64,000 nucleotides of DNA from Solirubrobacterales bacterium (lineage in GTDB: Bacteria; Actinomycetota; Thermoleophilia; Solirubrobacterales; 70-9), in NCBI GenBank assembly GCA_035762685.1, contig DASTNW010000063.1, positions 1,732 to 65,731 of the forward strand. The letters run 5' to 3'. Shown one piece after another: positions 1-53,476 of the stretch; the first letter of the stretch is position 1; each line of letters opens with the position of its first letter. The notes beneath the pieces are model-generated. The model had not been told where the DNA came from, ran no database searches, and saw only the letters and a program-made list of their open reading frames with translations. The position numbers and the translations under genes are program-made.

Positions 1-2
1 CC

Positions 3-278: not shown

Positions 279-306
279 CGATCGCGACCGACCCTCGGAA
301 CGGTGG

Positions 307-693
307 CTACTCGTTCAATCGGCGATGCGCCAATCTGTAGACAGTCTCGCCCCGCGCCCCGGCTGGCATGTGGCGCACGCCGAAAGCGAGATGGCCGAGA
401 TAAAGCCGTCCGTCCTTGCTCTTGGCGATCCGGAATACGAGCCCTAGCGGTCCACCAGGCGGAGGCAGGTAGACCTTCACGCAGCCGGGAAGACTCGTCC
501 CGTCCCGAGCTTCCTCGTCGCAGGCGAACAGGCGTGAGGGATTGCTGTTGCTGTTGTGCTGCCTTTTGTGAGGTTGGCTATCTGCTCCACGTTTGGGCCT
601 TGGTGCCCTGGAGCGCTTGGGGGTGACTCTGCTGGCGCTTGGATGGAGGACTGGTCTTTGTGAATCTTTTTGCTCGCTGCTGACATAGACCAA
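307..693 (-). CDS. possible RelE/ParE-fold toxin-like protein or remnant (start uncertain)
   Basis: The C-terminal ~60 aa (CVKVYLPPPGGPLGLVFRIAKSKDGRLYLGHLAFGVRH...ETVYRLAHRRL) resembles the beta-sheet core of RelE/ParE toxins and of the toxin at 3232-3624. Hand-checked GC3 is high only in the 3' half. The N-terminal part is low-complexity. Confidence 0.3.
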   Translation of the reverse strand: MVYVSSEQKDSQRPVLHPSASRVTPKRSRAPRPKRGADSQPHKRQHNSNSNPSRLFACDEEARDGTSLPGCVKVYLPPPGGPLGLVFRIAKSKDGRLYLGHLAFGVRHMPAGARGETVYRLAHRRLNE

Positions 694-776
694 CGCTCTG
701 CCCGTGGCGCTTTCGCCCAGGCGCCACGGCGCACAGCTATAGATGTCGCGAGCCCAAATACGACCTCCGACGGTTA

Positions 777-1343
777 TTAGCGGTCGAACACCCTTACGAG
801 TTCACGGCAACGTTCAATGAATTCGGCGTTGAGCTGGCCCGACCGCCCTAGGTGGCCCTCGACTATCTGTGACGTCTCCTCAGTCCAGTTCTCCGGCAAC
901 ACGTCGACGGCTTGGATGAGGGTCACTAATCCGTCCCTATTTGCCATGTAGGACTGGGGCACCGGATGGTCGGCCCCGAATCGCAGGCGCAGACGCCCGT
1001 GCTCCGGCGCAACCGCGAAAGTCTTGTCGTGGGCATCCTCCGCAGCTTCCCGACGTATCCGCACCGCTTCTTCGTCGGCCAAGAAGCCCTCGATGGTTTC
1101 CCCCTTCTCTTGTTCGTAGCCGATGACCGGAGTGCGGCTGCGCAAATGGAGGATCGCGCTGATGGATTCCGTGACAGCACCGTTTGCCTCGTCGATCACC
1201 CCGCGCATCTCGTCGAGGTCGCGCATCTTCCGGTCGTGAGTGAGCTGCTTGTCGATGCGCCGGTTCGCGGTCCACGCCGCGAGTCCCGCTGCGATCACGG
1301 CCGCGGTCGCGAGCAACACCGCATCCCAGGTCGGACAGTCCAC
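777..1343 (-). CDS. hypothetical protein with N-terminal transmembrane anchor
   Basis: 188-aa ORF. The N-terminus (AVLLATAAVIAAGLAAW) is a hydrophobic helix and the rest is helical and charged. It lies 12 nt downstream of the 1356-1667 ORF on the same strand. No family recognised. Confidence 0.5.
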   Translation of the reverse strand: MDCPTWDAVLLATAAVIAAGLAAWTANRRIDKQLTHDRKMRDLDEMRGVIDEANGAVTESISAILHLRSRTPVIGYEQEKGETIEGFLADEEAVRIRREAAEDAHDKTFAVAPEHGRLRLRFGADHPVPQSYMANRDGLVTLIQAVDVLPENWTEETSQIVEGHLGRSGQLNAEFIERCRELVRVFDR

Positions 1344-1355
1344 GGTGGGAAGGCG

Positions 1356-1667
1356 TCAGTCGGCCTGACGGGCTTCGAGCTGGGTGACTCGCTCGGCGAG
1401 TGCATCGATCTTCGACGCCAACTCCTCCTTCGAGGGTCCGTCGTCGACATAGACGGCCGCAGGGACCACCGTCTGGCCGCTCTCGGCAAGCGCAGCGAGT
1501 TCCATCGGGTCGATTCCGACCTTCTTCAGCCGTTCCAGCATGTCGCTGACCTGCGCGGCCGCAGCACTCACTTCGGCGATCCTCTCAGCCGTGAATCCCT
1601 TCTCCTCTAGGAGGTCCATCCGTTCGTGAGCCTCGCGAGCGAGGGCGGCTGCGTCTGCCGGGTCCAT
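1356..1667 (-). CDS. hypothetical acidic helical protein
   Basis: 103-aa ORF immediately upstream of, and co-oriented with, 777-1343. Alanine/glutamate-rich helices. No family recognised. Confidence 0.5.
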   Translation of the reverse strand: MDPADAAALAREAHERMDLLEEKGFTAERIAEVSAAAAQVSDMLERLKKVGIDPMELAALAESGQTVVPAAVYVDDGPSKEELASKIDALAERVTQLEARQAD

Positions 1668-1821
1668 AAATGGAGCCTAGACGTGCCAGGCATGGGGCGT
1701 CAATCAGATCGCACCTGTTGCGCGCGAGCCCGGTGCTCAGAAAAAGCGCAGCGTGGCCACGCTCTCTTGCTCGCCTCTGGAGTCCTAGTTGACGATGCAC
1801 TGAGCTTGATCAGCCACACCC

Positions 1822-2037
1822 ATGTGCATGGCGAACGAAAACGACCTAGATCCGACGCTTGCGGAGTGGGCAGACGAGGTCCGGGGACTCGGCAATGTTG
1901 GCGGCCACTTCGACCCACTAGAGGAAGTCAGCCTGGAGCAGGCCGCCGACCTCTCCCACCTCGTCCGACAGATCCTGCGCTACAAGTACGAGGAGCCAGC
2001 CCGGCGTCAGCGGCTCCGCGAATCGCGCAACCCATAA
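1822..2037 (+). CDS. DUF4145-like (HEPN-superfamily) fragment
   Basis: The 71-aa ORF contains EVRGLGNVGGHF...SLEQAADLSHLVRQIL. This matches the R-x-x-GN-x-x-x-H core and following helix typical of DUF4145 domains. An in-frame TGA lies directly upstream (1801-1803), so it looks like a truncated C-terminal half. Confidence 0.35.
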   Translation: MCMANENDLDPTLAEWADEVRGLGNVGGHFDPLEEVSLEQAADLSHLVRQILRYKYEEPARRQRLRESRNP

Positions 2038-2287
2038 GTCACGAGGCAGCGGTTAGGCCGGATGGCGTGCGACCATTGCGTTGAAGGCAGGCATCCATGC
2101 GCTGCCGCCTAGCAACGAAAATGGTCACAACCCATACGTAAAAGGTTTCTGTCTGCACGGCTCAAATGCTGATCCGTGCGATCAGACCCGGCCAACCTCA
2201 AGGCGCTTGTCGTAAACGACGCCACGGGCAAAGGAGAGGCATCAGAGCGGTAGACGCCTGAGATCTGCCGCCGACCCAGCCCCGATC

Positions 2288-3046
2288 ATGGAAGGCGTGC
2301 TCGATGTTGCCTTCAACAGCCGTGAGACGGCCTTTCTGATTTGGGCCGGGGTCTTTCTATTCGTCGTCTTTATCACGAGCCTGGGGGAACTTAAGAGCCT
2401 CGGCAGAACCCTAGTTTCGATCCTAAGGGTCGGCTTGGCTTGGATTTTCCTCGGCTTCATCCCATACATAGCAGGGGTGCTCTACCTACTGGATCGGATC
2501 GGCTTCTGGCATCCGGGCCTTGCATTCGCTGCCCTGTTCTGGACCGTGACGGCGGGCTGGTGGCTGATCGCGGTTTGCATCAAACGAGAGGGAGCACGGC
2601 TTGCCTCGGCTGTACTTGGGGTGATTTCCGTGACGGTCTTTGTGGAGGTCTTGGTCAACCTCAAGACTTTTAGTCTCCCGATCGAGCTAGTCCTGCTCCC
2701 CGTCCTCGCCCTCTTCTTGATCGCTCAGACTGTCGGCGAAAAGAGCAAGCGCGACGACCTAGACCCCCTGCGTCAAGGTGGCGAAAGGGGCTTGATGGTG
2801 GTCGGGGCCGTCATGTTTCTCTACGTGTTACTCAGCATCGTTACGACCTGGAGCCAATTTGACAAAGACGAAGCCCTGAGGTCGCTCGCGTTGCCTCTAA
2901 TCCTTACCGTGGCCGCCGCTCCCTACGTCGCTGCGATTTGGGGTCTATCGGTCAGAGACACGCGCCGAGTAGAACGTCGAAAGGTCGCACAGGCGCATGA
3001 AATTGAAAAAACCTTTGAATTTAGCTCTATGAAGAAAGCTGCTTGA
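2288..3046 (+). CDS. polytopic membrane protein, unknown function
   Basis: 252-aa ORF with at least six hydrophobic helices (e.g. FLIWAGVFLFVVFI, AWIFLGFIPYIAGVLYLL, LVLLPVLALFLIA). No family recognised. Confidence 0.55.
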   Translation: MEGVLDVAFNSRETAFLIWAGVFLFVVFITSLGELKSLGRTLVSILRVGLAWIFLGFIPYIAGVLYLLDRIGFWHPGLAFAALFWTVTAGWWLIAVCIKREGARLASAVLGVISVTVFVEVLVNLKTFSLPIELVLLPVLALFLIAQTVGEKSKRDDLDPLRQGGERGLMVVGAVMFLYVLLSIVTTWSQFDKDEALRSLALPLILTVAAAPYVAAIWGLSVRDTRRVERRKVAQAHEIEKTFEFSSMKKAA

Positions 3047-3225
3047 TTGGAGATACCCATCCGTCCCCAAAACTCCGTGGAGCCTCGCCTTATCGACTGG
3101 CGCCTAACCTCGCCGTCGGCGGGCTTGACAGCCCCGAACATCGCCACAAGCTCCGCGAGCGTCGCGGGCTCGTGATCTAAGCGCTTCATGATGGCCTGAG
3201 CAGAGGTATCCGAAGACACAGGCAC
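2923..3225 (-). CDS. small ORF downstream of the toxin gene (possible third gene of the TA operon)
   Basis: Hand-counted third-position GC is about 78 percent over 3061-3180 in this frame, which supports coding for MKRLDHEPATLAELVAMFGAVKPADGEV.... The last ~40 codons overlap the 3' end of the convergent membrane gene and look non-protein-like. Confidence 0.3.
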   Translation of the reverse strand: MPVSSDTSAQAIMKRLDHEPATLAELVAMFGAVKPADGEVRRQSIRRGSTEFWGRMGISNQAAFFIELNSKVFSISCACATFRRSTRRVSLTDRPQIAAT

Positions 3226-3231
3226 ACCATC

Positions 3232-3624
3232 CTAGTCCCGCCCCAGACGCTGCCTCGCCTTGCGGTGCGCACGGAGACCGGCTCGCGGGGCAACCGTAAG
3301 CCAGCGGCACTCCGCAGGAGCCCCATCGGTGGGCTCGTTGCGGTAGATCAGGCGGAAGCGAGGCTTCCCGGAGTACGAGGGGATGTCGAAGCGGACGCGG
3401 CGGCAGTTGGCAAGCTCAGGATGAAGCCCTGGTCCCATTGGCTCACCAAGGAACGGGTTGCCCTTGCACTCCACCAACAACTCAGCGACGCGCTGTTTCA
3501 GCGCCTCCGCTTCGACCACCTGCTCGTGATCGTCCTCCGAGGAGATCGCCGTGAGTTCACGCACGTCATCAAGAACACCCTCGGCGAAGGCGACGGGAAC
3601 CCCAGCGGCTGCGTCGGCCGTCAT
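3232..3624 (-). CDS. type II toxin, RelE/ParE superfamily
   Basis: The pattern GNPFLGEPMG...CRRVRFD...RFRLIYR...WLTVAPRAG...ARQRL fits the RelE/ParE layout. Its start has a 4-nt ATGA overlap with the upstream small ORF. Confidence 0.6.
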   Translation of the reverse strand: MTADAAAGVPVAFAEGVLDDVRELTAISSEDDHEQVVEAEALKQRVAELLVECKGNPFLGEPMGPGLHPELANCRRVRFDIPSYSGKPRFRLIYRNEPTDGAPAECRWLTVAPRAGLRAHRKARQRLGRD

Positions 3625-3887
3625 TCCTTGGGCAGGTTGATGCCCAGACTGGCCAGCGCCTGGGCGCCGTCTTCCGTCCGATCGGCGGCGCCGCTGCGAA
3701 TCCGCTCCGCAGCTATAGCGGCAGCCTCGTCGTCAGCACGGCGCGACTCGAAGGTCTCTGCCATCGCGTCGATCTTCGAGTTCATCGCCCGCATCTGCTC
3801 TTCGAGCCGACGCACGCGTCCAGATCTGATCCGCGAAATCAAAGGCATCTCGACGAGGATAGCTGCGCCGTCCGATCTATCCATCAC
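3621..3887 (-). CDS. putative cognate antitoxin
   Basis: 88-aa helical ORF translationally coupled to the toxin (stop overlaps the toxin start at 3621-3624). Assigned by position only. GTG start at 3887. Confidence 0.5.
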   Translation of the reverse strand: MMDRSDGAAILVEMPLISRIRSGRVRRLEEQMRAMNSKIDAMAETFESRRADDEAAAIAAERIRSGAADRTEDGAQALASLGINLPKE

Positions 3888-3934
3888 GTTCCATCGCCAC
3901 GCGGATAGGCGTCCACGTGCTTGCGGACCCAGAA

Positions 3935-3968
3935 GCGCCCCTCCTCCCCGGGAAGGGCGCTTTCTGTT
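3935..3968. terminator. GC-rich hairpin with T-tract
   Basis: GCGCCCCTCC (3935-3944) pairs with GGAAGGGCGC (3951-3960) with one mismatch and a 6-nt loop. TTTCTGTT follows on the plus strand. It lies between the TA operon start and the stop of the 4002-4439 ORF. Confidence 0.3.
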
Positions 3969-4001
3969 GGAGGCCGCGGCCTTAGAGCCAAATACGGGTC
4001 G

Positions 4002-4439
4002 CTAGCAGCCGTGCGGAAGGTGCTGGAAGAGCACTGCGATCTGGAGCGATGCTGGGCAGTAATGGCTGACCGTGGGTTCGCAGGTAGTCACAGCGGTCGA
4101 GATGGATATGGACTTGGTGCAGCGGGTTTCCGGTTGGACTCGGATCGACCCGTGCAGCGTGACGTGCCCGTCCGATCGAAACCAGCAACCGATGGCTTCC
4201 CGCCCCCAGCCACAGTGGCCGTGGGAGTTAAGTGCCCCTGGGCCACTGATCGTCGGATGTCGGTCGAAACCGCTGATGCCAGGGTGGCGAGCTTCGCCGT
4301 CCGAGTTCAACCGAGTGATGGCAAAACCAAGTTCACCGCCTCGGCGGGGAGCCCAGCAATCAACGCGAAAGTCGATCCGAGACTGTTGCCAAAGAACGGC
4401 AGCCAGCATCGCTCGAGCTTGACGATCCTTCTTGAACAT
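4002..4439 (-). CDS. hypothetical Cys/His-rich protein (weak call)
   Basis: 145-aa ORF with protein-like composition (GHCGWGREAIGCWFRSDGHVTLHG) and a hairpin about 40 nt past its stop. Hand-checked GC3 is only about 50 percent, and two plus-strand ORFs overlap it. Confidence 0.25.
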   Translation of the reverse strand: MFKKDRQARAMLAAVLWQQSRIDFRVDCWAPRRGGELGFAITRLNSDGEARHPGISGFDRHPTISGPGALNSHGHCGWGREAIGCWFRSDGHVTLHGSIRVQPETRCTKSISISTAVTTCEPTVSHYCPASLQIAVLFQHLPHGC

Positions 4440-4461
4440 GAGGTGAGCGCTGAGCGGATGG

Positions 4462-4830
4462 CTAGACGCACGTATTCCCGCTGTTCAAATACTCGGCTAC
4501 CTCCGATATCCGGCCCTCCGGGTCGAGGGTCAGGAAGAGGGCGCCTCTGAGTTCGATGTTCGTGCCTCGCTCGATGTTCTCGGCCGCCATGGACTGGGAC
4601 TCCGGGTCGACGAACAGCCGCAGGCATTCCATCGTCAGGTCCGGGTGGTCGCGCAGCTCGGCTTCGTAGCGGTCGCGGAGCGCGTCGAGGCCGTGCAGTA
4701 CGGCGGAGCCGTCGCGGAACACCAAGTCCGGAGCGTAGAGCGAGTAGTAGCTCTCCAGGTCGCGCCTGTTCCAGCGATCGATGTAGTCGGCGTAGAAGGT
4801 CGCCAGCTCGGCGGCGTTGAGCCCTACCAT
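4462..4830 (-). CDS. SnoaL/NTF2-like domain protein
   Basis: FYADYIDRWNRRDLESYYSLYAPDLVF...GALFLTLDPEGRISEVAEY is the SnoaL-like pattern. The start is placed at the internal ATG (4830) rather than the track start (4872). Confidence 0.6.
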   Translation of the reverse strand: MVGLNAAELATFYADYIDRWNRRDLESYYSLYAPDLVFRDGSAVLHGLDALRDRYEAELRDHPDLTMECLRLFVDPESQSMAAENIERGTNIELRGALFLTLDPEGRISEVAEYLNSGNTCV

Positions 4831-4922
4831 CGGCCGCGAGCCTAGTGGACGAAGACTGGCCAACCACCCCATTGGCCAAGGTTCCTTGCACCGGGGGCAG
4901 CTTTTAGGTCGATCTCTCCCGA

Positions 4923-7493
4923 GTGCTTAGGATGTGCCGTCTTTTGCCCCGCCGTTCCGATTTCCCATATGAAAAAGCAGCGAGCATTCAGCTTGCCGAG
5001 CGGGACTTTCAGCTTGGCCTGAATTGCGATCTGTGGCCGACCGAAGCGGGCACGCGCCCGCCGGGGTGGCGCGCTGGCAAGGACCAGCCCTGGCTCAGCC
5101 GCACGATCGACGATACATACGACGCAGACGGCGATGAGATCCCGGAGGACCGGCGCGAGCTCGCCTGCCCGCTGAAGGAGTCGATCCTCCGTTTCCCCTC
5201 GGCGCCGATCCACGGGCTCCACCGCCTGCACGAGTACCACGTCAACATCGGCGAGTCGGAGACCTTCCACACCTATCGCGTCCTCACCCACGCGAAAAGA
5301 AGGCGGAACAAGCCGGTAAGCCGCATCTTCCTCATGCACAACGGCCTCAACGAGGCGGAGTCGATGGGCCTCTACTACCGCCTCGCGTCGCGCCTGATTC
5401 AGCAAGACAAAAGCGGCGGCACCGCGTGCGTCCTGCGACCGTTTCCTGGCCACCTGACGCGCTCTCGGTTTTCGGGCTTCGCCGAGACCCCGCTCGACCA
5501 CTACCTCTGGGACGGCTCGCACCTCTTCCGCCAGTTTCTCCGTTACATGATCGAGACCCAGTGGTTCCTCAGCGTCATCGCCCGGCGCTCCTCTTATCGC
5601 TGCATCTCCGGGCTCAACCTCCTGGCGGAACACAGCAAACCGGCCCGCAGCCGCCTCGAAGACGACGTCCTCGCTGAACACATGCTGCGAGCGTGGAACG
5701 CGCTCTATGCCGTGTCACGACCCGCTGTGGGCGAACTGCACAGCGGTCACGACGACGCCACGCCGCTGGGACCTCGCGCATCGAAAAAAGCCATCCACCA
5801 GTCGATTGCCGCGATGCGCAGTCTGCTGAACCTGACCGAGAAGCTCGACGGCGACCCGAAGCCCACGGACGGGCCCGAGCCCGACGTCCACGTGATCGGC
5901 TACAGCCTCGGCGGCTTCGCGGCCCAGTCGATCTTCATGTCCTGGCCGTTCATGGTCGGATCGTGCTCGACCCTGCTCTCCGGCGGCGCGCTCCGGGAAT
6001 TGGCGCCGACGGCCTTTGCCGATCCGGAAGAGTGGCAGACGGTGCTGCACTCGCTTCGCTACGAGCTCGACGACGCGATGCTGAACGATCGCTACAAGTT
6101 CGTCAGCAAAGTCAAGGGGGGCATCGAGATGGGTCGCGTCTCGGGCATCGAATTCGACCTCTTCCTCTTCCTCAAGAGCACCTTCTACGAGGTCTTCCAG
6201 CAGGAGTACCGGGGCAGCTTCCAGACCCGCCTCGCCGCCTTCCGGCGCCGGATGCTCTTCATCGTCGGCGGCAACGACCCGATCGTGCGCCCGCAGAGCG
6301 TCCTCGACTCCGGTCCGCCCGACGGCATCAACATGCTCGCGGTCGGCGGCCTCGGCCACTTCCTCGGAAGCAAATCGCAGGACGACGAAGAGGAGCAGCA
6401 GCGACTCTTCTGGATACCGCGGATCGGCGAGCTGATCGACTCCCTCGCCGACGACGCGGCCAAGACGCTGGCGGACGAGCGCAGCGAGACCTGGCTCGGC
6501 CCCAAGATGGAGCTCCCGGCCAAGCCCGACCAGCCTGCGGGCGCCTCGGCGCTGGCCAAGACGTCCGGTCCGCTGAATGCGATGGAGCGCCTGGAGCTGG
6601 ACGGAGAAGGCTCCCTGCCCGGTCCGCTCTTCCAGCGCGTCCTCGACGACCTGCTCGCTCGCATCGACGCGCGCCGCGGCATCCTCTTCATCCTGCGCAA
6701 CGAGGTGCCAACCGCACTGCTGGAAGACGACGCCATCCAGCAGCTCGCCGCCGGCCTGCACCACAACGACATCGGGATCGTCAACTACATCGAAGGGCTG
6801 AAAGCACGTCGGGAACTGATCCTCGACAACCCCGAGCGCATCTCCCTGGTCCTCCCCTGGAACGCGCGCCTGATCACGGAAAAAATGGACGCCCACCCCG
6901 GCCACCCAAGCCAGTCGGAGGGGGCCGGCGGCCAGCTTCCGCGTCGCGTGGAGCCGAGGAAGATCTGGGAGAAGTTCAACGAGCGCTGCATCGAGGTGGT
7001 CGCCTCGGCACCCCACGCGATCCGCGTCTGCGACGGTCGCCTCGGCGTCCTCGACGAGAGCGGCCTGCCCGCGGTGGACACGGCCGCCCTTGCAAGCGCG
7101 GCCAAGGAGCGGCTTGGAATCGTCGACCGTACGCATCGCGTGACACCGTCGTTGCCGGACTGCTGGGTCTGGATGTCGCCGGAGTTCCTCGCGCTCGACG
7201 GCGATGAATCGCTTACGGTCGAGGCCGGCCGGTCTCGACTCTGCGAAGTGGTCCCCCGGGAGTACAAAGACGTCAACGTCCTCAACAACCGGTTGCGCCG
7301 GGACCACCTACGCATCGTCACCGTCTCCCGTTCGCGCTACAACCCGCGCTTCCGGGGACGGATCGTGGCCGACCCCCGCGCGGCCAGGAAACTCCTTCTC
7401 CACATCACGCTCTGCATCGCGGCCTCGGTCCCGTTCGAGGACTACGACCTCGACGCCCAGCCACCCCGGCTGCGCGAGCCGGAACCCGTCTGA
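4923..7493 (+). CDS. large serine alpha/beta-hydrolase with uncharacterised C-terminal half
   Basis: All catalytic elements are readable. Oxyanion-type strand: RIFLMHNGLNE. Nucleophile elbow: HVIGYSLGGFAAQ. Acid: LFIVGGNDPIV. His: VGGLGHFLG. About 350 C-terminal residues have no recognisable domain. Exact start uncertain. Confidence 0.7.
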   Translation: MLRMCRLLPRRSDFPYEKAASIQLAERDFQLGLNCDLWPTEAGTRPPGWRAGKDQPWLSRTIDDTYDADGDEIPEDRRELACPLKESILRFPSAPIHGLHRLHEYHVNIGESETFHTYRVLTHAKRRRNKPVSRIFLMHNGLNEAESMGLYYRLASRLIQQDKSGGTACVLRPFPGHLTRSRFSGFAETPLDHYLWDGSHLFRQFLRYMIETQWFLSVIARRSSYRCISGLNLLAEHSKPARSRLEDDVLAEHMLRAWNALYAVSRPAVGELHSGHDDATPLGPRASKKAIHQSIAAMRSLLNLTEKLDGDPKPTDGPEPDVHVIGYSLGGFAAQSIFMSWPFMVGSCSTLLSGGALRELAPTAFADPEEWQTVLHSLRYELDDAMLNDRYKFVSKVKGGIEMGRVSGIEFDLFLFLKSTFYEVFQQEYRGSFQTRLAAFRRRMLFIVGGNDPIVRPQSVLDSGPPDGINMLAVGGLGHFLGSKSQDDEEEQQRLFWIPRIGELIDSLADDAAKTLADERSETWLGPKMELPAKPDQPAGASALAKTSGPLNAMERLELDGEGSLPGPLFQRVLDDLLARIDARRGILFILRNEVPTALLEDDAIQQLAAGLHHNDIGIVNYIEGLKARRELILDNPERISLVLPWNARLITEKMDAHPGHPSQSEGAGGQLPRRVEPRKIWEKFNERCIEVVASAPHAIRVCDGRLGVLDESGLPAVDTAALASAAKERLGIVDRTHRVTPSLPDCWVWMSPEFLALDGDESLTVEAGRSRLCEVVPREYKDVNVLNNRLRRDHLRIVTVSRSRYNPRFRGRIVADPRAARKLLLHITLCIAASVPFEDYDLDAQPPRLREPEPV

Positions 7494-7511
7494 TCCGGAA
7501 GCGACCTGACC

Positions 7512-7748
7512 GTGGCTGAGCAGGTGCCCGCAGTCTCTGACGTGCTTGCCACGATCGAGCGCCACGACTGGCCCCGGCTGGAACGCCTGCTCGACCCAGA
7601 GGTCCATTGGACGACCGCCGTGGAGGAGCACCTGCACGGTCGCGAGGCGGTGATCGCTCGCCTCTCCGGCGACCCGCCGCCGGCCCCTCCGGCGTTCCAC
7701 GAGGTGCGCGGCGGGCGAATCGTGCGCTGGATCGACGTTCCGGGCTGA
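7512..7748 (+). CDS. small NTF2/SnoaL-like protein
   Basis: 78-aa ORF with a GTG start, 18 nt after the hydrolase stop. The motif LLDPEVHW...GREAV... is typical of SnoaL-like proteins. Confidence 0.45.
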   Translation: MAEQVPAVSDVLATIERHDWPRLERLLDPEVHWTTAVEEHLHGREAVIARLSGDPPPAPPAFHEVRGGRIVRWIDVPG

Positions 7749-7773
7749 GGCACTCCGCCGGGACCGATGCGGG

Positions 7774-8316
7774 ATGATGCGCGCCGTGACGCGCCGGCAG
7801 GGACTGATCGCAACGGGGATAGCGACGGTGGCCTTGCTCCTGGCGATGTCTCCCGCCGACCAGCGGATGCAGGACACCGGCGGCCCGGGGATCGTCCCCT
7901 TCGAGCTGACCGGCGGCCAGGACCGGGCCGACGAGATCCTCGCAGAATGGGGCGAGGAGGGACAGGACGCCGCGCGCGAGTCGCTCTGGATCGACTTCGC
8001 CTTCCTGCTCGCCTACGGCGCCTTCCTCACCCTGGCGCTCGCCGCGGTCCGCGACCTCGCCAGGGAGCGCGGCTGGCATCGGCTCGCGGCGATGGGCGCG
8101 GTGGTCGTCTCCTTCGGCGCCCTCGTGGCCGCGTTCGACGCCCTCGAGAACATCTGCCTGCTGCTGACCCTCGACGGTGCGGGGGCGGCGTTGCCCCTGC
8201 TGGCGACGATCTTCGCCGCCTGCAAGTTCATCCTCCTCGCCGCTGCGATCGCCTACCTGCTCGCCGGCCTCGGGATGCGCCTGCGCGATCGCGGCGCGGC
8301 CGCTCGGGTGTCGTGA
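7774..8316 (+). CDS. membrane protein, unknown function
   Basis: 180-aa ORF with an N-terminal signal/TM segment (GLIATGIATVALLLA) and three more hydrophobic helices. Confidence 0.6.
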   Translation: MMRAVTRRQGLIATGIATVALLLAMSPADQRMQDTGGPGIVPFELTGGQDRADEILAEWGEEGQDAARESLWIDFAFLLAYGAFLTLALAAVRDLARERGWHRLAAMGAVVVSFGALVAAFDALENICLLLTLDGAGAALPLLATIFAACKFILLAAAIAYLLAGLGMRLRDRGAAARVS

Positions 8317-8352
8317 CCCACCCGCCAGAGAGCCGCTGAGCCGATTCGCGCG

Positions 8353-8381
8353 GGAAGCGCCCGCCAGAGGCGGGCGCTTCC
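8353..8381. terminator. bidirectional terminator-like hairpin between convergent genes
   Basis: GGAAGCGCCCGCC (8353-8365), a 3-nt loop, then GGCGGGCGCTTCC (8369-8381): a perfect 13-bp stem. It sits between the stops at 8316 (+) and 8394 (-). Confidence 0.5.
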
Positions 8382-8393
8382 GCTACGAGTGCT

Positions 8394-8948
8394 TCAGCCG
8401 ATTCCGTATGTGCCGTTGGCGGCACCGTCGACCGTGAACGAGCCGACGATTTTGTAGCCGCTGATCGACCCCGAGAATTCCATTTCGGAGATCGCGGTCG
8501 GCGTGTTGAGCGTCACTGTGGTGTTGGTGACCGTTTTGTCGAGTTCGGTCGTCCCACAGCCAGCTTTGAAGGTCCGTTTGTTACGCCACCCTGTGATCGT
8601 CAGGTCGGTGGCGTTGACGTGGACCGTCCAGGGGAGGCCTTTCGCTTCGGAGCTGGCCAGTTCGCATTTGGCAAACGAGCCAAAGCCCGCCGGGCATTTT
8701 TTGGTTTCGAATTTGGTGATTTTCCCGGTGCTTCCGCCTTCGGTCGTGAGGGTCGCGTGTATTTCACAGGACATGCCGTTGCCTTCGGTCGTTTCGAACA
8801 CTTCGCCGCCCGTCAGGCCGATTTCGACGAATTTGGTGACGTTCACCCCTTTGTCTTTCCACACCGCCGCCAGGGCCAGCGCCGGGACCACGAGCACCAC
8901 GAGCGCCGCGATCCCGCCGGCGAGCAGCAGCCTCTTCTTGCCTTTCAT
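8394..8948 (-). CDS. secreted small beta-rich protein with four Cys
   Basis: Signal peptide MKGKKRLLLAGGIAALVVLVVPALALA. The mature part is Thr/Lys/Gly-rich with Cys at SCEIH, KKCPAG, AKCELA and AGCGTT. Visibly lower GC than its neighbours. Confidence 0.65.
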   Translation of the reverse strand: MKGKKRLLLAGGIAALVVLVVPALALAAVWKDKGVNVTKFVEIGLTGGEVFETTEGNGMSCEIHATLTTEGGSTGKITKFETKKCPAGFGSFAKCELASSEAKGLPWTVHVNATDLTITGWRNKRTFKAGCGTTELDKTVTNTTVTLNTPTAISEMEFSGSISGYKIVGSFTVDGAANGTYGIG

Positions 8949-9007
8949 CTCTCCCTTTCCATTGCATTGATGACCCGCAGGTCAAAATTTGGACAGGGAA
9001 GATAACG

Positions 9008-47803: not shown

Positions 47804-47877
47804 GCCGGAGTAGCTCAGCTGGTTAGAGCAGCGGAATCATAATCCGCGTGTCGGGGGTTCGAGTCCCTCCTCCGGCA
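47804..47877 (+). tRNA. tRNA with CAU anticodon (elongator Met; Ile2/lysidine type not excluded)
   Basis: Folds by hand into a 74-nt cloverleaf. Acceptor GCCGGAG/CTCCGGC. D arm GCTC-AGCTGGTTA-GAGC. Anticodon arm GCGGA-ATCATAA-TCCGC. T arm GGGGG-TTCGAGT-CCCTC. Discriminator A. CCA not encoded. Confidence 0.9.
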
Positions 47878-47879
47878 TC
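47834..47879 (+). repeat. attL-like core (3' part of the functional tRNA)
   Basis: GAATCATAATCCGCGTGTCGGGGGTTCGAGTCCCTCCTCCGGCATC. Repeated at 53411-53456 with one mismatch. Confidence 0.75.
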
Positions 47880-48028
47880 CGGATTCCCCTTTGCAGAGCC
47901 AATTCTCGGGGCCATCCGCCCGCTCCGCAGGTTTATACGGAAAATCCGCAAGTCGCGTGTCCTAGCCAGGCCGAAATCCCCATCGCAGAGCCAAATGTTT
48001 GTGAAGCACGCCTCAGCATCTTATTTTC

Positions 48029-48058
48029 GGTGGACCGAACGGTGGACCGAGTTCGGCC
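48029..48058 (+). repeat. tandem GGTGGACCGA motif near the left island end
   Basis: GGTGGACCGAAC GGTGGACCGA GTTCGGCC, with 12-nt periodicity. A related copy lies at 53309-53346. Confidence 0.5.
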
Positions 48059-48299
48059 CGAATTGATCTGTCAGCAGCGTGCCTCGTCACCGGAGTTGAC
48101 CAGCGCTCCAGGGCAGGATCTGCGTCCAAACAACGGAACCGGCGACCTTCGGGGTATGAATTCCCTGGCGCGGGGTGAACAGGCCTGTTTTGGCTTGTCA
48201 AGCGGTCTGAGTTGGTCCGAGCTGGACCCCTTTTCGCTCAACTTAGTACCCACTTAGTACGCGCTCCCCGGCCGTCGAGGTTGGCGGGATCGGCCGCCG

Positions 48300-49427
48300 C
48301 TAGACGCGCCAGCGCTCCGCGATGGTCTCGTCGGCGACGAAGACCTGCCGAAACTCGGCGTCCTCGATCGCCCGGCGAACTGCGGCGCGGAGAACATCTT
48401 GAAGCAGGGCGACCTTGGCGAGGGCGTTCCGCTCATCGCTGCTCTGCGGACCTTCCTGCTCCTCCTCCGCTGAAGTGTCGGCGCCGGCGCCCTCACCGAC
48501 GAAAAGTTGCACGTGGGAACCGTGGACCCAATCGGAGCGACCATTGTAGAGCCGTTCGGCGAGGTCTTCGTCAAGGCCGTCGATCCCGATCTCGGCGGCT
48601 AGGGCTGGGACGCGCTTCTTGAACTGCTGGGTCAAGTCGCGGCGGCCGATCTTCAGCAGCGCCTCGATCCCGCCGACCAAGATCGGCAGCACCATGTCGG
48701 CCCAGCGGATACGAGGCGCATAGGCCATCCTCCACATTGCCCGCCTGACGCGGGGCGGCAGCTGCTCGCGGCACTCCCAATAGGCCCCCAGGAGAACGGC
48801 GAGTTCACGTCCCTCGGCGGCGTCGAGCCACTCGCGGTCGCGGTGCAGCCGCCAGATCGCCTTATCCTCGCGGTGGAGCACGTACACGATGCAGCGCTGG
48901 CCGTCCTCGTAGTCGAGCAGCCGCGCCGCGTACTCGGTCGAGTAGCCGTTATCGCGGACGAGGCGGCTGAGGGTGAGCGCATCGTCCAAGGTGCCGTCGG
49001 TGTCCCAGGCGTAATGATGCTCGTCCAGCTCGTCGAGCGGAACCTCCTTGACAAAGGAGTACCGCTGGCCGAACTGGCGCACCGGCAGGAAGTAGTGGCC
49101 GCGCGGCGTGCAGGCGTTCATCACGAGCTCGGCGGTGTCCCGGTCGAGTTCTTCGACCACAATGCCGCAGCCGAGATCGATCGCGTTGACGGTCTCACCG
49201 AAGCGCTCGTCGTCCACACCGGGGTGGCGATCCCATCCGATCGGTGGGTGAGCGTAGACCTCCTCGATCAGCACGTTGAGGGATGGGTCTCCGGCGCAGA
49301 GGATGAGGTCGCGCACCCTTACGATGGCGCCTGCGTTGAGCGGCCCGGCGCTGAACCGATCCTCTAACTCCGCGCTGAGCTGATCCGCCACGGAGGCATC
49401 CTCGCGCCCGGCGGAGACAGAAGGCAA
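48300..49427 (-). CDS. unknown protein with C-terminal HEPN-like core (ORF375)
   Basis: TTG start 5 nt after the ORF582 stop. Helix GGIEALL (E255), then LYNGRSDWVHG (R297/H302), then the amphipathic helix ALAKVALLQDVLRAAVRRAI. The N-terminal ~220 aa are unassignable. Confidence 0.6.
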   Translation of the reverse strand: MPSVSAGREDASVADQLSAELEDRFSAGPLNAGAIVRVRDLILCAGDPSLNVLIEEVYAHPPIGWDRHPGVDDERFGETVNAIDLGCGIVVEELDRDTAELVMNACTPRGHYFLPVRQFGQRYSFVKEVPLDELDEHHYAWDTDGTLDDALTLSRLVRDNGYSTEYAARLLDYEDGQRCIVYVLHREDKAIWRLHRDREWLDAAEGRELAVLLGAYWECREQLPPRVRRAMWRMAYAPRIRWADMVLPILVGGIEALLKIGRRDLTQQFKKRVPALAAEIGIDGLDEDLAERLYNGRSDWVHGSHVQLFVGEGAGADTSAEEEQEGPQSSDERNALAKVALLQDVLRAAVRRAIEDAEFRQVFVADETIAERWRV

Positions 49428-49432
49428 TGCGC

Positions 49433-51181
49433 TCAGTCCTGCGCCGCCGCAGGCTTCTCCTCGGCGTCAGGGCCAAGCTGCAGGGCTAAGGTGCGCAGGT
49501 CGATGTCGACGTCCTCTCCCGCTTGGACTCGGGCCTCCCAGGCAAGTAGCTCAGCGTTCCCGGGGAGCTCCTCGACGGCGTTCGCGGCGAGAAATTGAGC
49601 TTCCATGGCATCGCCGGTGGCCGCAAGCTGGACGGCGCCTGCTGCCTGCAGCGCCGCGTCGACGGAAGGGGGCATTCTCAGGTGGCGCTTTTTGGATCGT
49701 TCCTCTCGCCTCTCGGCGGCGAGGTCTGCCCACTGTTGGGACGTCCAGTCTGGCGCCTCGCCCAAGAGGATCGAGACGACGAACGACTGGATCGAGGGTT
49801 CTTCGAGCAGGCGGCCGTAATCCGAGATCAGCTGGATCGCCAATGGTCTAATCGCGTCGATGGGTCCGATCTGATTCCAGAGCGCGTAGATGGCGAGCAT
49901 CGAGCGCTTTGCCTCATCGTCAGAGGTGCCTGGAAGCAGCCGCTCAATCTCCTCCCGCACCTCTGCTAGATCGTTCACCCCGTCAGAGCGACCAGCCATG
50001 GCGTCGACCAGGCAATCGACACAGCCCGCGAAATATCTGCCTGCACTATTTGAGTTGAATCCACGAGCGTTCCAGATCCAATACTGGGGTGCCGCCTGCA
50101 TTTGGAGAACGCCTGGCAGGGCGGCGCGCCAATTGAAATCACCATCGACCCCGACCGGTGCACGGAAAACGTAGGCCTCCACGACGTGGCGGGCTAGGCG
50201 CGCAAGACCCTGCAGCGAGATCATCGTCCCGAACTCCAGGGATGCGACGGTGTCCGCCCTCTCCCCCAGCACCATGACCTCGGCAGGAAGCTCCTCGAGC
50301 GCGTGGACGCTCCCGGAGCGCACGTCGTAGGCGATCTTCAGTGCACGCTGTAGGTCGGGGCGCCGAAGCGGGAAGCGGCTGCCGCTCGCCTCCTCGCGAA
50401 AGTAAGAAGGACGCAGGTTGTCCTCCACGAAGGCGACGAAGCGGCGCTTCTTGCCAGCGCGCTCAGCCTCCAGAATGGCGTCTCTGATGCGTTTCGCCGC
50501 CTCGGCGTCCACAGCGTCAAGCGTGGGCTCCAGCAGCTTTCGCTTGCGCGAATCGAAATGCTCCCAAGGGATCGGGTCCGCGTCGGTGTCCTCGCTCAGG
50601 GACTCAAGTGCAGCCACGAGGTGGACGTAGGAAACGGTCTGGTCAGCCGTCGCCCACTGAGTCGCGCGGACGATGCGGCGGATTGCCCGCATCGCCGCTT
50701 CGAAATGACCGCGGCGCAGGGAGAGCAAGCGCTCGAAAAAGCGATCGAACTCCGCGATCTCCTCATCCCCGATGTAACGGGCAGGGTCGAAGGTGTTGAG
50801 AAAGATCTTCGAGGCAGCGGAGCGTGAGGAGTCCGAGATCGAGTTGGGGACCAGCCTGCGAACCGTGTCGGAGTCGCGGTGGAAGACGGAGTCAAGTGCG
50901 AACGAGAGGACATCGGCCAAGTCATCGATCAGGTCGACGCCGCCAGTGGCGACGTGGGTGGAGCGCTCACCATTTGGAAGCTCGGCCTCAAGGTGCTCGG
51001 TGACGGTTGCGGTCACAGTCGAGACAGGATCAATGCCGCTCGAGGGTGCCAGTTGTCCAATCGGCAGCTCCAGCGCCGCCTCCCGCAGAAAGTTGCGGTT
51101 CGTATAGAGGACGGTGCGGTGATCGGTTGAGAACAAAGGCACTCCCTCGCGGAAGTACATCTTGGTCACGATCTGCAGCAC
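49433..51181 (-). CDS. unknown protein with central HEPN-like core (ORF582)
   Basis: GTG start. Helices AAMRAIRRIVRA / YVHLVAALESLS (E193), a ~90-aa insert, then IAYDVRSGSVHALEE (R288/H293). Followed by a ~240-aa helical C-terminal extension. Confidence 0.6.
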   Translation of the reverse strand: MLQIVTKMYFREGVPLFSTDHRTVLYTNRNFLREAALELPIGQLAPSSGIDPVSTVTATVTEHLEAELPNGERSTHVATGGVDLIDDLADVLSFALDSVFHRDSDTVRRLVPNSISDSSRSAASKIFLNTFDPARYIGDEEIAEFDRFFERLLSLRRGHFEAAMRAIRRIVRATQWATADQTVSYVHLVAALESLSEDTDADPIPWEHFDSRKRKLLEPTLDAVDAEAAKRIRDAILEAERAGKKRRFVAFVEDNLRPSYFREEASGSRFPLRRPDLQRALKIAYDVRSGSVHALEELPAEVMVLGERADTVASLEFGTMISLQGLARLARHVVEAYVFRAPVGVDGDFNWRAALPGVLQMQAAPQYWIWNARGFNSNSAGRYFAGCVDCLVDAMAGRSDGVNDLAEVREEIERLLPGTSDDEAKRSMLAIYALWNQIGPIDAIRPLAIQLISDYGRLLEEPSIQSFVVSILLGEAPDWTSQQWADLAAERREERSKKRHLRMPPSVDAALQAAGAVQLAATGDAMEAQFLAANAVEELPGNAELLAWEARVQAGEDVDIDLRTLALQLGPDAEEKPAAAQD

Positions 51182-51243
51182 ACCCGTCCTCTCCAGTCCT
51201 TGAACTCCGTCGGGCTTAGCTTGGCAGGCCCGCGCGAGGTGTC

Positions 51244-51471
51244 CTAGTCGAGCAACTGCCGAAGCTCATCCGCGCTGAGATCAGCATCGCGCAAGATGCC
51301 GGCGAGGGTGCCACGACGGAGTTCTCGGTGCAGCGGGACGACGAGCGCGTGCCGGCGCCCGGCCTTCTTCAAGCGGACGTGGCTGCCACGTTGACGGACG
51401 ACTTCCCAGCCCTCCCTGCCAAGTGCCTTGATCAGGCGCTCGCCGGAGACGACCGGCTGGCGCGGGCTCAC
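51244..51471 (-). CDS. hicA: HicA mRNA-interferase toxin
   Basis: GERLIKALGREGWEVVRQRGSHVRLKK...VVPLHRELRRGTLAGILRDA is the HicA signature. 4-nt overlap with hicB. Confidence 0.85.
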   Translation of the reverse strand: MSPRQPVVSGERLIKALGREGWEVVRQRGSHVRLKKAGRRHALVVPLHRELRRGTLAGILRDADLSADELRQLLD

Positions 51472-51692
51472 GCCGGCAAGGGAATCGAGCGACGGATCAC
51501 GCCGCTGTCAAGCGATTCGCCGTCTTCGCGCAGGCCCTCGACATAGAGGGCGACCGCCTCGCTGGCGTTCGCCATCGCGTCGTCGATGTCGTCACCCTGG
51601 GTATGAAGACCGGGAAGGTCGGGCGCGTAGACGTGATAGCCACCCTCGTCCTGGGGCTCGAAGACCAACTCGATTTCTCGTGCATCTGCCAT
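51468..51692 (-). CDS. hicB: HicB antitoxin (minimal, no DNA-binding extension)
   Basis: IELVFEPQDEGGYHVYAPDLPGLHTQGDDIDDAMANASEAVALYVEGL is the HicB N-domain pattern. Only 74 aa. Confidence 0.8.
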   Translation of the reverse strand: MADAREIELVFEPQDEGGYHVYAPDLPGLHTQGDDIDDAMANASEAVALYVEGLREDGESLDSGVIRRSIPLPA

Positions 51693-51749
51693 AGCCGCTC
51701 CCTAGTGTACGCCGGCTCTCAAGCCGCTTGCCTATCTAGAGCATCAAGG
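51693..51749 (-). promoter_or_regulatory. hicB upstream element (copy A of a duplicated promoter/operator/RBS block)
   Basis: Minus-strand reading: CCTTGATG-CT-CTAGATAGGC-hairpin-GGCGTACACTAGGGAGCGGCT-ATG(hicB). The same block order recurs at 53205-53267. Confidence 0.4.
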
Positions 51750-51898
51750 TGACACTTGCAGAGCTGAATCAGCAGTCTAGAGCGGTTGACTCAGGGGTCG
51801 GAGACAAGGACATGTCGTCGCCCCTGTACATGTTGGAACCCGTCAGCCGACCTCGGCTCTGCGAAGCGATCCCCGCCCCGCCTTGGGCCTTCAAGCCG

Positions 51899-53137
51899 TC
51901 AGTCCCATGGGAACTCGATATTCAGCAGGGCATCCCTGTTCCGCTTGTCGGATGGATACGGCTCCACCTCTATCTGTTCGCCGAGCTCCCTCAGCTGCTC
52001 GTTCGCCATGAGGCTCGTCTTGAGATCGGCTATGAGCTCGCCTGCCTGCCCGAATGCTCGTTCCACCGCGTCATAGTCGAGAAGCTCTCCTTCGTGGACG
52101 GCTCGGTTGCGGAGCATGTAGCCATCGCCGAACCATGCGCCCCAGGGACCACCAAGATTCTTGATGTCGATTTCCCGCCCGAGCAGCTCCGGAAGATATT
52201 GCGTCACCTTCTTCTTCAGTGGCGCTTGATTCGCTTCCCATGCAGTCTTTTCGGGCACGCCGGTGATGGCCTGCCCGTAGTAGAGGACGAACCTGATCAA
52301 CAGCTCGACCGCAGTGTTCAGATCGACGAGGGCGCGAGTGTGATCGCCAACCAGCCGCTCGCCCTCCGCCGCGTGGATGAAGCGGAAGACCTCGAGAAAT
52401 GGTTGCCCACCTTCTTTCCCGCCCCCGTGATAGCCGATCGCCTCACGCGCAATGCTGCCGTCGTCATCTAGGTCACCCGCCAGTATCGGGTAGCCGTCGT
52501 GGATCTCGGTGGCGAAGGCGATCATCTCTCGCCGATCCCCCGCCAGCGTCACCGTGTTGTCGACCAGGACCGCGACTTCGGGCGGCACGTCGGCCAGAGT
52601 GAGCGCGCCGATCTCCCAGCGATCGGCGACGAACCCGAGCGGCTCCAACAGCGCGTTCAGGTGGACGAGACCGTCGAACATAATGCCCTGGAGGGCGCCG
52701 ACGGTCAGCTCTCGGCCCGGCGGATGCGCGCTCTGCGGCACGAATCGCGTCAGGGCCACTACTGACTTGACCACCTCGATCGTCGCCTGCCCAGGCTTTG
52801 GCGCGGCGCCCGGGCGGTTGGCCGATTCAGGCGGAATCAGGCCCTGCATCCCCCAATCGCCAAAGGTCGCTTCTATCCGGGACAGAGGCGCCGGCTCGGG
52901 CTCGGTCAGGTGGCGCGCGATCATGGATGTATGGGGCACCGAGTCCGTCGGGATCTCTCCAACCTTGATGCCACCGAGCAGCCCGGCTACATCGGCGTCG
53001 GTCCAGCCGCTCCATTCCTCGTCGCGATCGACGTAGGAGATGTGCATCGTTCCTGACTGCATCGGCAGCGCACGGGTAAGTTCAAGGAAGAAAGTGAAGA
53101 GGGTGACTGGCGCGCGGGGATCGGTGCCGTCAGTCAT
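51899..53137 (-). CDS. unknown protein with C-terminal HEPN-like core (ORF412)
   Basis: Helix LNTAVELLIRFVLYY (E278), then GYMLRNRAVHEGE (R343/H348, the classical R-N-x-x-x-H form), then helix AVERAFGQAGELIADLKTSL. The N-terminal ~260 aa are unassignable. Confidence 0.6.
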   Translation of the reverse strand: MTDGTDPRAPVTLFTFFLELTRALPMQSGTMHISYVDRDEEWSGWTDADVAGLLGGIKVGEIPTDSVPHTSMIARHLTEPEPAPLSRIEATFGDWGMQGLIPPESANRPGAAPKPGQATIEVVKSVVALTRFVPQSAHPPGRELTVGALQGIMFDGLVHLNALLEPLGFVADRWEIGALTLADVPPEVAVLVDNTVTLAGDRREMIAFATEIHDGYPILAGDLDDDGSIAREAIGYHGGGKEGGQPFLEVFRFIHAAEGERLVGDHTRALVDLNTAVELLIRFVLYYGQAITGVPEKTAWEANQAPLKKKVTQYLPELLGREIDIKNLGGPWGAWFGDGYMLRNRAVHEGELLDYDAVERAFGQAGELIADLKTSLMANEQLRELGEQIEVEPYPSDKRNRDALLNIEFPWD

Positions 53138-53204: not shown

Positions 53205-53267
53205 AAGCGCTTCCCTCTAGCTTACGCCAGCCTTCGGGATGCTGGCCTATCTAGTAGGACATCAAGG
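53205..53267 (-). promoter_or_regulatory. copy B of the duplicated upstream block, ahead of ORF412
   Basis: Minus-strand reading: CCTTGATG-TCCTA-CTAGATAGGC-hairpin-GGCGTAAGCTAGAGGGAAGCGCTT-ATG. This ATG (53204) opens only a 12-codon ORF that ends 28 nt before the ORF412 start. Confidence 0.4.
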
Positions 53268-53308
53268 GCGATGTTCATCGGACTCTCCGGGCCTTCCGCT
53301 TCCGGCGT

Positions 53309-53346
53309 GGTGGACCCGACGGTGGACCGAACGGGGGAGTTCCGGC
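53309..53346 (+). repeat. tandem GGTGGACC(C)GA motif near the right island end
   Basis: GGTGGACCCGAC GGTGGACCGAAC GGGGGAGTTCCGGC, in the same orientation as the left copy. It ends 65 nt before the attR core. Confidence 0.5.
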
Positions 53347-53410: not shown

Positions 53411-53456
53411 GAATCATCATCCGCGTGTCGGGGGTTCGAGTCCCTCCTCCGGCATC
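53411..53456 (+). repeat. attR-like core (displaced partial tRNA 3' end)
   Basis: GAATCATCATCCGCGTGTCGGGGGTTCGAGTCCCTCCTCCGGCATC. It has C instead of A at tRNA position 37 and lacks the tRNA 5' half. Confidence 0.75.
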
Positions 53457-53476
53457 AGGACTCGCGTGATCTGGCG

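Follow-up and report, generated by a model that had tools for sequence, protein, structure and literature searches.

A tRNA-Met island in a Solirubrobacterales genome with three candidate sensor-HEPN defence genes from separate protein families

The 64,000-nt stretch of DNA analysed here (contig DASTNW010000063.1 of a Solirubrobacterales bacterium; the whole stretch is referred to below as the window) contains a 5.6-kb, integrase-less island at a tRNA-Met gene, in which five genes, all on the minus strand, lie between direct repeats, i.e. a hicB-hicA pair and three large open reading frames (ORFs), ORF412, ORF582 and ORF375 (Table 1). The three large proteins share the signature Y-x-x-R-[S/N]-x-x-V-H, in which an earlier note on this DNA had seen the mark of a single multi-HEPN RNase module. 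The results of our analysis favour a different view, to which we give a probability of about 0.6, namely that ORF582, ORF375 and ORF412 are three new single-protein, sensor-HEPN candidates for abortive infection, carried as independent cassettes and not as parts of one machine. In this analysis each of the large ORFs founds an unannotated protein family of its own, and the three genes are probably phage-defence genes; the locus reveals no new multi-HEPN system.

The tRNA island and its hicBA pair, both of which the earlier note had recognised, were confirmed. The island is delimited by two copies of a direct repeat derived from the 3' part of the tRNA gene, is of deviant composition (G+C 0.63-0.66 over 48000-53000 versus mostly 0.69-0.75 in the flanking chromosome) and carries cargo that varies in relatives; no integrase ORF was found inside it, based on the window ORFs and Pfam. 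The 36-nt core of the repeat also brackets the islands in L037 and L078, two of the related loci, which are designated here by L numbers. The hicA and hicB genes overlap by 4 nt and, by Pfam gathering scores, form a complete HicAB pair. The closest homologues of all three large ORFs are from Solirubrobacterales metagenome-assembled genomes.

Table 1. Features of the island at tRNA-Met, in window positions; aa, amino acids; residue ranges of domains are approximate
Feature	Position (nt)	Strand	Description	Source
tRNA-Met (CAT)	47804-47877	+	Integration target of the island	ARAGORN
Left 53-nt direct repeat	47834-47886		tRNA-Met 3' part plus 9 nt; att-like (attachment-site-like) boundary	Repeat search
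ORF375	48300-49427	-	Alpha/beta N-domain (~30-200) and helical HEPN-like C-domain (~203-372)	
ORF375, motif	48522-48548	-	YNGRSDWVH, followed by G	
ORF375, E255	48663-48665	-	Upstream Glu, in E-x3-K	
ORF582	49433-51181	-	Beta-rich N-region, central helical HEPN-like region (~157-340) and TPR-like C-terminal repeat (~380-567)	
ORF582, motif	50303-50329	-	YDVRSGSVH	
ORF582, E193	50603-50605	-	Upstream Glu	
hicA	51244-51471	-	Toxin, 75 aa	Pfam HicA_toxin, E 2.8e-18, 66.2 bits (cutoff 27)
hicB	51468-51692	-	Antitoxin, 74 aa	Pfam HicB_lk_antitox, E 4.4e-12, 46.7 bits (cutoff 27)
Promoter/leader-like element, hicB copy	51702-51760	-	Directly upstream of hicB	Repeat search and sequence reading
ORF412	51899-53137	-	N-domain of unknown fold (~1-245) and HEPN-like C-domain	
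ORF412, motif	52094-52120	-	YMLRNRAVH, followed by E-G	
ORF412, E278	52304-52306	-	Upstream Glu	
Promoter/leader-like element, ORF412 copy	53217-53270	-	Upstream of ORF412; kept in L078	
Right 53-nt direct repeat	53411-53463		Displaced tRNA-Met 3' fragment, 94% identical; right island boundary	

The signature lies at residues 294-302 of ORF375, 285-293 of ORF582 and 340-348 of ORF412, as had been claimed, and the nucleotide coordinates agree too; the same holds for the upstream helices with their glutamate residues (VAALESL with E193 in ORF582, GGIEALL with E255 in ORF375 and TAVELLI with E278 in ORF412). That a shared pattern of this kind is unlikely to arise by chance was also borne out. Among the 127,996 six-frame residues of the window Y..R[SN]..VH has three matches, all of which are in these ORFs, and it appeared in 0, 1 and 1 of 20,000 composition-preserving shuffles of the three proteins; the bare form, R[SNDH]xxxH, is common (63 six-frame matches; 8-15% of shuffles). 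Because the nine-residue pattern was defined post hoc, conservation within the families is the stronger, and an independent, argument.

In the ORF582 family, E193, Y285, R288, S289 and H293 are invariant, both among 87 close sequences and among 30 sequences reaching down to 32% identity; in the ORF375 family, R297, S298 and H302 are invariant, with Y294, E255 and G303 being present in 91 of 92 sequences. Relatives of ORF412 numbered 40 in a first, word-indexed search and 354 representatives (at E <=1e-3) in an exhaustive profile search. In the deep alignment of this family (88 sequences, 18-46% identity), the only columns conserved at 90% or more are E278, W335, Y340, R343, N344, H348 and G350, i.e. 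the E, Y, R, N and H under discussion make up five of just seven. Over the 87/30, 92 and 88 sequences of the ORF582, ORF375 and ORF412 families, the R, the S/N and the H are invariant or at least 93% conserved, and the upstream Glu (E193, E255, E278) is conserved at 97-100%; R and H, which the earlier note had proposed to check, are thus conserved in the homologue alignments of all three families. With respect to the fourth position after the Glu, the ORF375 family alone has E-x3-K, with K259 present in 87 of 92 sequences; in ORF412 the residue is R282, which lacks conservation, and neither K nor R is found there in ORF582. Since the signature is the most conserved feature in each family, it can be regarded as the functional core of each.

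HEPN RNases are characterised by Rx4-6H with a polar residue directly after the R, a site that falls where a helix ends and a loop begins, and by a conserved acidic residue in an earlier helix (helix 2), often in the form E-x3-[KR], with an insert separating helices 2 and 3 (PMC3710099). The polar residue is present in all three proteins, as R-S-x3-H in ORF582 and ORF375 and as R-N-x3-H in ORF412, S being less usual at this position than N, D or H. Secondary structure was assigned with DSSP in AlphaFold2 (AF2) models of the two proteins modelled, ORF582 (predicted local distance difference test score, pLDDT, 85.5) and ORF375 (pLDDT 86.7, predicted template modelling score, pTM, 0.87). In the ORF582 model, R288-S289 forms the end of helix 274-289, and H293 falls within a flexible loop (290-299); E193 closes helix 181-195, and a helical insert (196-273) precedes the motif helix. 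In the ORF375 model, H302 is the last residue of helix 287-302, from which a 27-residue loop (303-329) leads to helix 330-355; E255-x3-K259 is in helix 243-258, with a helical insert at 259-286. Both models hence have the motif at a helix end and loop start, and an acidic residue in an upstream helix followed by an insert, the E-x3-[KR] form of the acidic site being limited to the ORF375 family.

In the case of ORF412, the deep family profile places R343, N344 and H348 on R502, N503 and H507 of Ec2ApeA (PDB 9hxb; E 0.33). Five of the 88 family members match, by score, the PADLOC Csx1/Csm6 CARF+HEPN model (best E 7.9e-6), one member matches Csx1 and one RT-HEPN in PADLOC (E 3.3e-4), and sub-threshold Pfam matches in the family are to HEPN_Apea, HEPN, RiboL-PSP, Csm6-HEPN, LA2681 and HepT.

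Several results weigh against the assignment of these proteins to the HEPN superfamily and to defence. Foldseek searches of the PDB gave best E values of 0.63 for ORF582 and 0.27 for ORF375, with no HEPN protein among the 50 matches listed for each, the rows for 20S proteasome alpha and TPR proteins being generic; against BFVD, which was searched with the ORF375 model, nothing was significant and no match was below E 0.2. The ORF582 and ORF375 families match no HEPN model in Pfam, NCBIfam or PADLOC, hhalign of either family with the ORF412 family was not significant, and comparisons among the three full-length family profiles gave P = 0.1-0.26, likewise not significant. Scans for relatives of the ORF582 and ORF375 families in viral contigs found none. 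Searches of Pfam, NCBIfam, PADLOC and PHROGs with the three ORFs themselves produced nothing apart from a weak HepT-like Pfam match on ORF412 (residues 351-388; profile positions 23-60), which appears to be out of register with the motif, given what we take to be the position of the motif in HepT.

PDB sequence profile searches with the ORF582, ORF375 and first ORF412 family alignments returned noise only, and Pfam scans of family members gave only TPR_14 for ORF582 and nothing HEPN-like for ORF375. A plasmid search for ApeA homologues, with a 32-aa motif fragment as query, gave marginal fragments only. A merged 45-column motif profile of the three families retrieved unrelated proteins from the PDB (AmiC, a GH2 protein and Rpt6), a result that is uninformative and was counted neither way. 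When profiles trimmed to the domains were compared, ORF582 and ORF375 aligned at the motif alone (P = 0.013), and ORF582 and ORF412 at the motif and the Glu helix (P = 0.043), neither comparison being significant, which confirms the observation in the earlier note that the three proteins have no similarity outside the core. With no significant match from either Foldseek or the profile-profile comparisons, membership in the HEPN fold is, therefore, probable rather than proven.

It could be that ORF582, ORF375 or both are not HEPN proteins, and that their R-S-x3-H belongs to some other undescribed fold or function, such as a hydrolase or a ligand site, the resemblance being convergent or coincidental. 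Such an origin would account for confident models without a significant Foldseek match, for the missing HEPN profile matches and the lack of significant similarity to the ORF412 family, and for S in place of the usual N, D or H after the R. Against it, the placement of the motif, the upstream Glu helix, the E-x3-K of ORF375 and the ApeA-like positions of the inserts all fit HEPN; moreover, Foldseek is weak for short all-helical domains inside larger proteins, and the genomic contexts are typical of HEPN Abi-type genes. We consider this alternative unlikely. The HEPN signature proposed in the earlier note stands with regard to its form, conservation, helix placement and ApeA-like pattern; the fold comparisons gave no match for ORF582 and ORF375. 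ORF412 very likely carries a true HEPN domain; ORF375 probably does so, and ORF582 probably also, albeit with slightly less assurance, the assignments of the latter two drawing on the motif together with the layout of the predicted helices.

The closest parallel is provided by ApeA (PF18739), an abortive-infection protein that acts as a single polypeptide of ~400-600 aa with non-HEPN sensor domains and a HEPN domain, and which is found in defence islands and restriction-modification contexts. Ec2ApeA (PDB 9hxb/9hxd/9hxi) is a tRNA anticodon nuclease, of which R502A is a catalytic mutant, and ApeA has an insertion between helices H3 and H4 (10.64898/2026.01.26.701840). Its motif, Y499-R-T-R502-N503-L-I-V506-H507-T-G509, fits Y-x-x-R-[S/N]-x-x-V-H letter for letter, and the ORF582 and ORF375 models likewise contain inserts. 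There is, however, no significant similarity to ApeA beyond the motif (E 0.33 in the PDB profile comparison; HEPN_Apea matched at E 0.014 in two of the 88 ORF412-family members), the N-terminal domains are unrelated, and in ORF582 the HEPN-like part is central and followed by TPR-like repeats. The three ORFs do not match HEPN_Apea, and Foldseek revealed no similarity of ORF582 or ORF375 to ApeA; we do not, therefore, place them in the ApeA family.

Csx1 and Csm6, the CARF+HEPN nucleases that accompany type III CRISPR as ancillary proteins, resemble ORF412 in having a sensor domain that precedes a HEPN domain at the C terminus and, as described above, their PADLOC models are matched within its family, one member of which also weakly matches Pfam Cas_Cas02710; the window ORF412 itself, however, does not match the Csx1/Csm6 models, and there are no cas genes among the annotated neighbours of the loci examined. 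The lactococcal-type AbiD/AbiF (Abi_2), AbiJ and AbiU2 and the Swt1-like HEPN+DUF499 proteins share the organisation of a stand-alone HEPN domain with a family-specific extra domain, and single-gene Abi HEPN proteins are carried on mobile elements and defence islands (PMC3710099), but the Pfam and PADLOC models for these proteins match none of the three ORFs. The hicB-hicA genes of the island are a standard complete pair. They are no antitoxin supply for the three large proteins; they move independently and are absent from most loci.

With respect to the non-HEPN regions, the C-terminal helical extension of ORF582 described in the earlier note was confirmed and is TPR-like by both Foldseek and Pfam. 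Four long ORF412-family members (668-723 aa) match TPR repeats (TPR_2, E 5e-14), presumably in C-terminal extensions. The TPRs in these relatives echo the TPR-like C terminus of the unrelated ORF582, which hints at a common solution to sensing.

Whether the three genes travel together was assessed in a sample of 80 loci plus the window, in which the ORF582 genome loci were taken with 10-kb flanks. No homologue of ORF375 or of ORF412 lies within 10 kb at any of the 33 ORF582 genome loci; these loci are from Solirubrobacterales, Pilimelia, Micromonospora, Nocardioides, Amycolatopsis, Mycobacterium, Arthrobacter, Demequina and the alphaproteobacterium Croceicoccus. In the sample as a whole, ORF582 homologues occur alone at 33 loci (and at one more with hicA only), ORF375 homologues alone at 31 (and at one more with hicA only), and ORF412 homologues alone at five (and at one more with hicBA), whereas ORF582 and ORF375 occur together at seven and all three genes at two. 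Because some metagenome contigs are short, part of these 'alone' counts is weak, although the genome loci are unaffected. The two loci with all three genes are the window and L078, in which the ORF412 homologue is 93% identical and the island DNA ~81% identical. Conserved co-occurrence and gene order across diverged homologues was thus not observed for the three ORFs. In L078 the ORF582 homologue is broken up over two reading frames that overlap (L078:4127-5976), which looks like a frameshifted pseudogene or is possibly an assembly error.

ORF375 relatives of at least 71% identity are often found in a hicBA-582-375 block (L042, L044-L047; partly L050 and L078). L048, however, has hicA and then ORF375, with ORF582 missing; one ORF375 homologue, of 77% identity, stands by itself next to type I restriction-modification, a PIN toxin and an integrase; and ORF375 homologues of 51% identity or less are all solo. 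In one sub-clade, hicBA-582-375 is nevertheless a stable, tightly spaced block, which speaks against full independence of the genes, and a functional link between ORF582 and ORF375 within that sub-clade is conceivable.

Such a link could take the form of a two-gene system of one Solirubrobacterales sub-clade, in which ORF582 and ORF375, perhaps with hicBA, act as a HEPN heterodimer or as a sensor plus an effector, with ORF412 being separate. In eight sources including the window (L001/L042, L044-L047, L050 and L078), ORF582 is always followed by ORF375 on one strand with short gaps, and the pairing was kept while ORF582 diverged to ~58% and ORF375 to 73-77% identity. ORF375 is, however, missing beside ORF582 homologues that have diverged just as far (52-56%; L003-L012) and beside every more distant one, and ORF375 homologues both at 77% and at <=51% identity lack ORF582. 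The taxonomic ranges that the searches recovered for the two families also differ, ORF582 occurring in many actinobacterial genera and an alphaproteobacterium, whereas named ORF375 matches are almost all from Solirubrobacterales. Pairing is, therefore, not obligatory across the families, and we regard a two-gene system as improbable. A more specific version, in which ORF582 and ORF375 of the hicBA-582-375 sub-clade pair up and together supply a composite, heteromeric RNase site, for which the TPR-like arm of ORF582 serves as sensor, is a long shot; if true, ORF582:ORF375 would be a hetero-HEPN defence nuclease made from folds without a detectable PDB match.

The preferred reading, that of independent single-protein systems, accords with the structure of the island, which is built up, by tandem accretion, of small cassettes that are each mobile on their own, i.e. 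[ORF412], [hicB-hicA] and [ORF582-ORF375]. L037 and L038 share the chromosomal site (HisRS, a beta-lactamase-fold gene, FTCD, peptidase M29 and tRNA-Met); in both, an 86%-identical ORF412 adjoins the outer repeat, and the tRNA-proximal cargo is an AAA ATPase with a peptidase S8, which replaces hicBA-582-375. Directly downstream of ORF412 in L037 are a further att-like copy and ~200 nt of leader (together at L037:11383-11576, between ORF412 and the next cassette), so that ORF412 there is a repeat-flanked cassette of its own. The AAA ATPase and peptidase S8 pair (L037:11787-15310), which is also present in the tRNA-proximal slot of L038-L040, may be another defence-type cassette.

In the window, ~60 nt of the leader recurs before hicB and before ORF412 (Table 1), and in L077 the leader is also present between ORF412 and the next cassette (L077:11381-11447). 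The hicB copy has, in order, TTGATG, CTAGATAGGC, an internal short inverted repeat and GCGTACACTAG, after which come GGGAG and ATG; the ATG after the ORF412 copy opens an ORF of only 12 codons and is ATT in L078. A scan of the island for sigma-70 promoters and terminators identified no promoter and nothing beyond chance. The recurring leader and att copies suggest tandem, integron-like accretion of cassettes at tRNA-Met. Just within each of its ends the island contains tandem GGTGGACCGAAC units, directly oriented, at 48029-48050 (~150 nt from the left repeat) and at 53309-53342 (~70 nt from the right repeat); they may be arm-type recombinase binding sites, though the island has no integrase.

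At a second type of site, between an rsmI-like methylase gene (TP_methylase) and metG, a 45%-identical ORF412 homologue is followed by a hicBA pair (L081:9292-9743 and L082:1447-1898) that is 88% identical in protein to that of the window (51244-51692). L083 has the same TP_methylase...metG context and a 64%-identical ORF412 homologue, but lacks hicBA. Given its 88% identity beside an ORF412 homologue of only 45%, and its absence beside one of 64% at the same site, hicBA is separately mobile; either it inserts preferentially beside ORF412-family genes or ORF412 evolves much faster. A necessary functional tie between ORF412 and hicBA, as might be suspected from their adjacency at this second site too, is rejected on the basis of these loci, together with those in which 85%-identical ORF412 homologues accompany the AAA ATPase and peptidase S8.

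The single obligate module of the earlier note, in which the three proteins, with or without hicBA, possibly form hetero-oligomeric sites, can appeal to the adjacency of the genes on the same strand (ORF582 and ORF375 being 5 nt apart as called), to the presence of the whole block in L078, of its ORF412-hicBA part in L077 and of hicBA-582-375 in L042 and L044-L047, and to the shared signature, yet it is highly improbable, since co-occurrence of all three is limited to the close relatives in the window and L078, the latter with a frameshifted ORF582, since ORF582 homologues stand alone at 33 genome loci and ORF375 is without ORF582 both beside type I restriction-modification (77% identity) and in L048, and since an 85-86%-identical ORF412, bracketed by its own att-like repeats, occurs with the AAA ATPase and peptidase S8 in the same tRNA-Met island and hicBA is separately mobile.

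The neighbourhoods of the homologues are of the defence and mobile-element type. They include TIR proteins, ParE, a transposase, integrases and serine recombinases, a relaxase, HEPN_Swt1+DUF499 proteins, STAND and NACHT NTPases, an RHS toxin, type I restriction-modification and PIN proteins; PADLOC matches nearby are to HNH effectors, Shedu SduA, RmrA, QatA, PD-T4-6 and PDC candidates, and Pfam matches to integrases, TraG/TraH, HipA, KAP NTPase and a Pycsar-type TIR. Some ORF582 homologues are followed immediately by a STAND-type NTPase of ~1400 aa with AAA_22, nSTAND5 and HEAT (L007:11895-16100, L008:11757-16091 and L011:11895-16106), and others are beside a NACHT protein or a HEPN_Swt1+DUF499 protein (L005:5692-9021; L018:11947-17193), the HEPN_Swt1+DUF499 protein directly adjoining the ORF582 homologue in L005.

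The analogy of ApeA, PrrC/RloC and the AbiD/F/J/U-type proteins suggests that each of the three proteins may be a self-contained sensor-effector. The family-specific non-HEPN domains, i.e. in ORF582 the beta-rich N terminus and TPR-like C terminus, in ORF375 the alpha/beta N-domain and in ORF412 the N-domain, would hold the nuclease inactive until they sense an infection cue. The HEPN-like domains would homodimerise to form a composite, metal-independent RNase site comprising the Glu, Arg, Ser/Asn and His residues, which would then cleave host tRNA or mRNA and so abort the infection. A protein of this design would require no separate antitoxin.

Should all three proteins prove to be active HEPN RNases, they would represent three protein families that are absent from Pfam, NCBIfam and PADLOC, of which the ORF582 family extends to Mycobacterium, Nocardioides, Micromonospora and Amycolatopsis, and the ORF412 family comprises at least 354 representatives at 50% clustering. 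Candidate single-gene abortive-infection systems would then be added for Actinomycetota, a phylum in which, to our knowledge, comparatively few defence systems have been tested. Since their putative sensor domains have no recognisable fold, they could sense infection cues of new kinds. In addition, the locus is a clean tRNA-Met hotspot, growing by tandem addition of small repeat-flanked cassettes without an integrase of its own, and as such helps in finding further unknown defence genes by position.

Two further observations concern the annotation of the window. ORF375 homologues align from query residues 6-12 onwards, and residues 1-7 of the ORF375 model have pLDDT <50 (window 49391-49427); the TTG start of ORF375 was probably called ~6-12 codons too far upstream, and the true gap between ORF582 and ORF375 may be some tens of nt rather than the 5 nt as called. 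Positions 1-9000 of the window are also low in G+C (0.59-0.66 versus ~0.70-0.75 elsewhere), which suggests a second foreign or atypical region.

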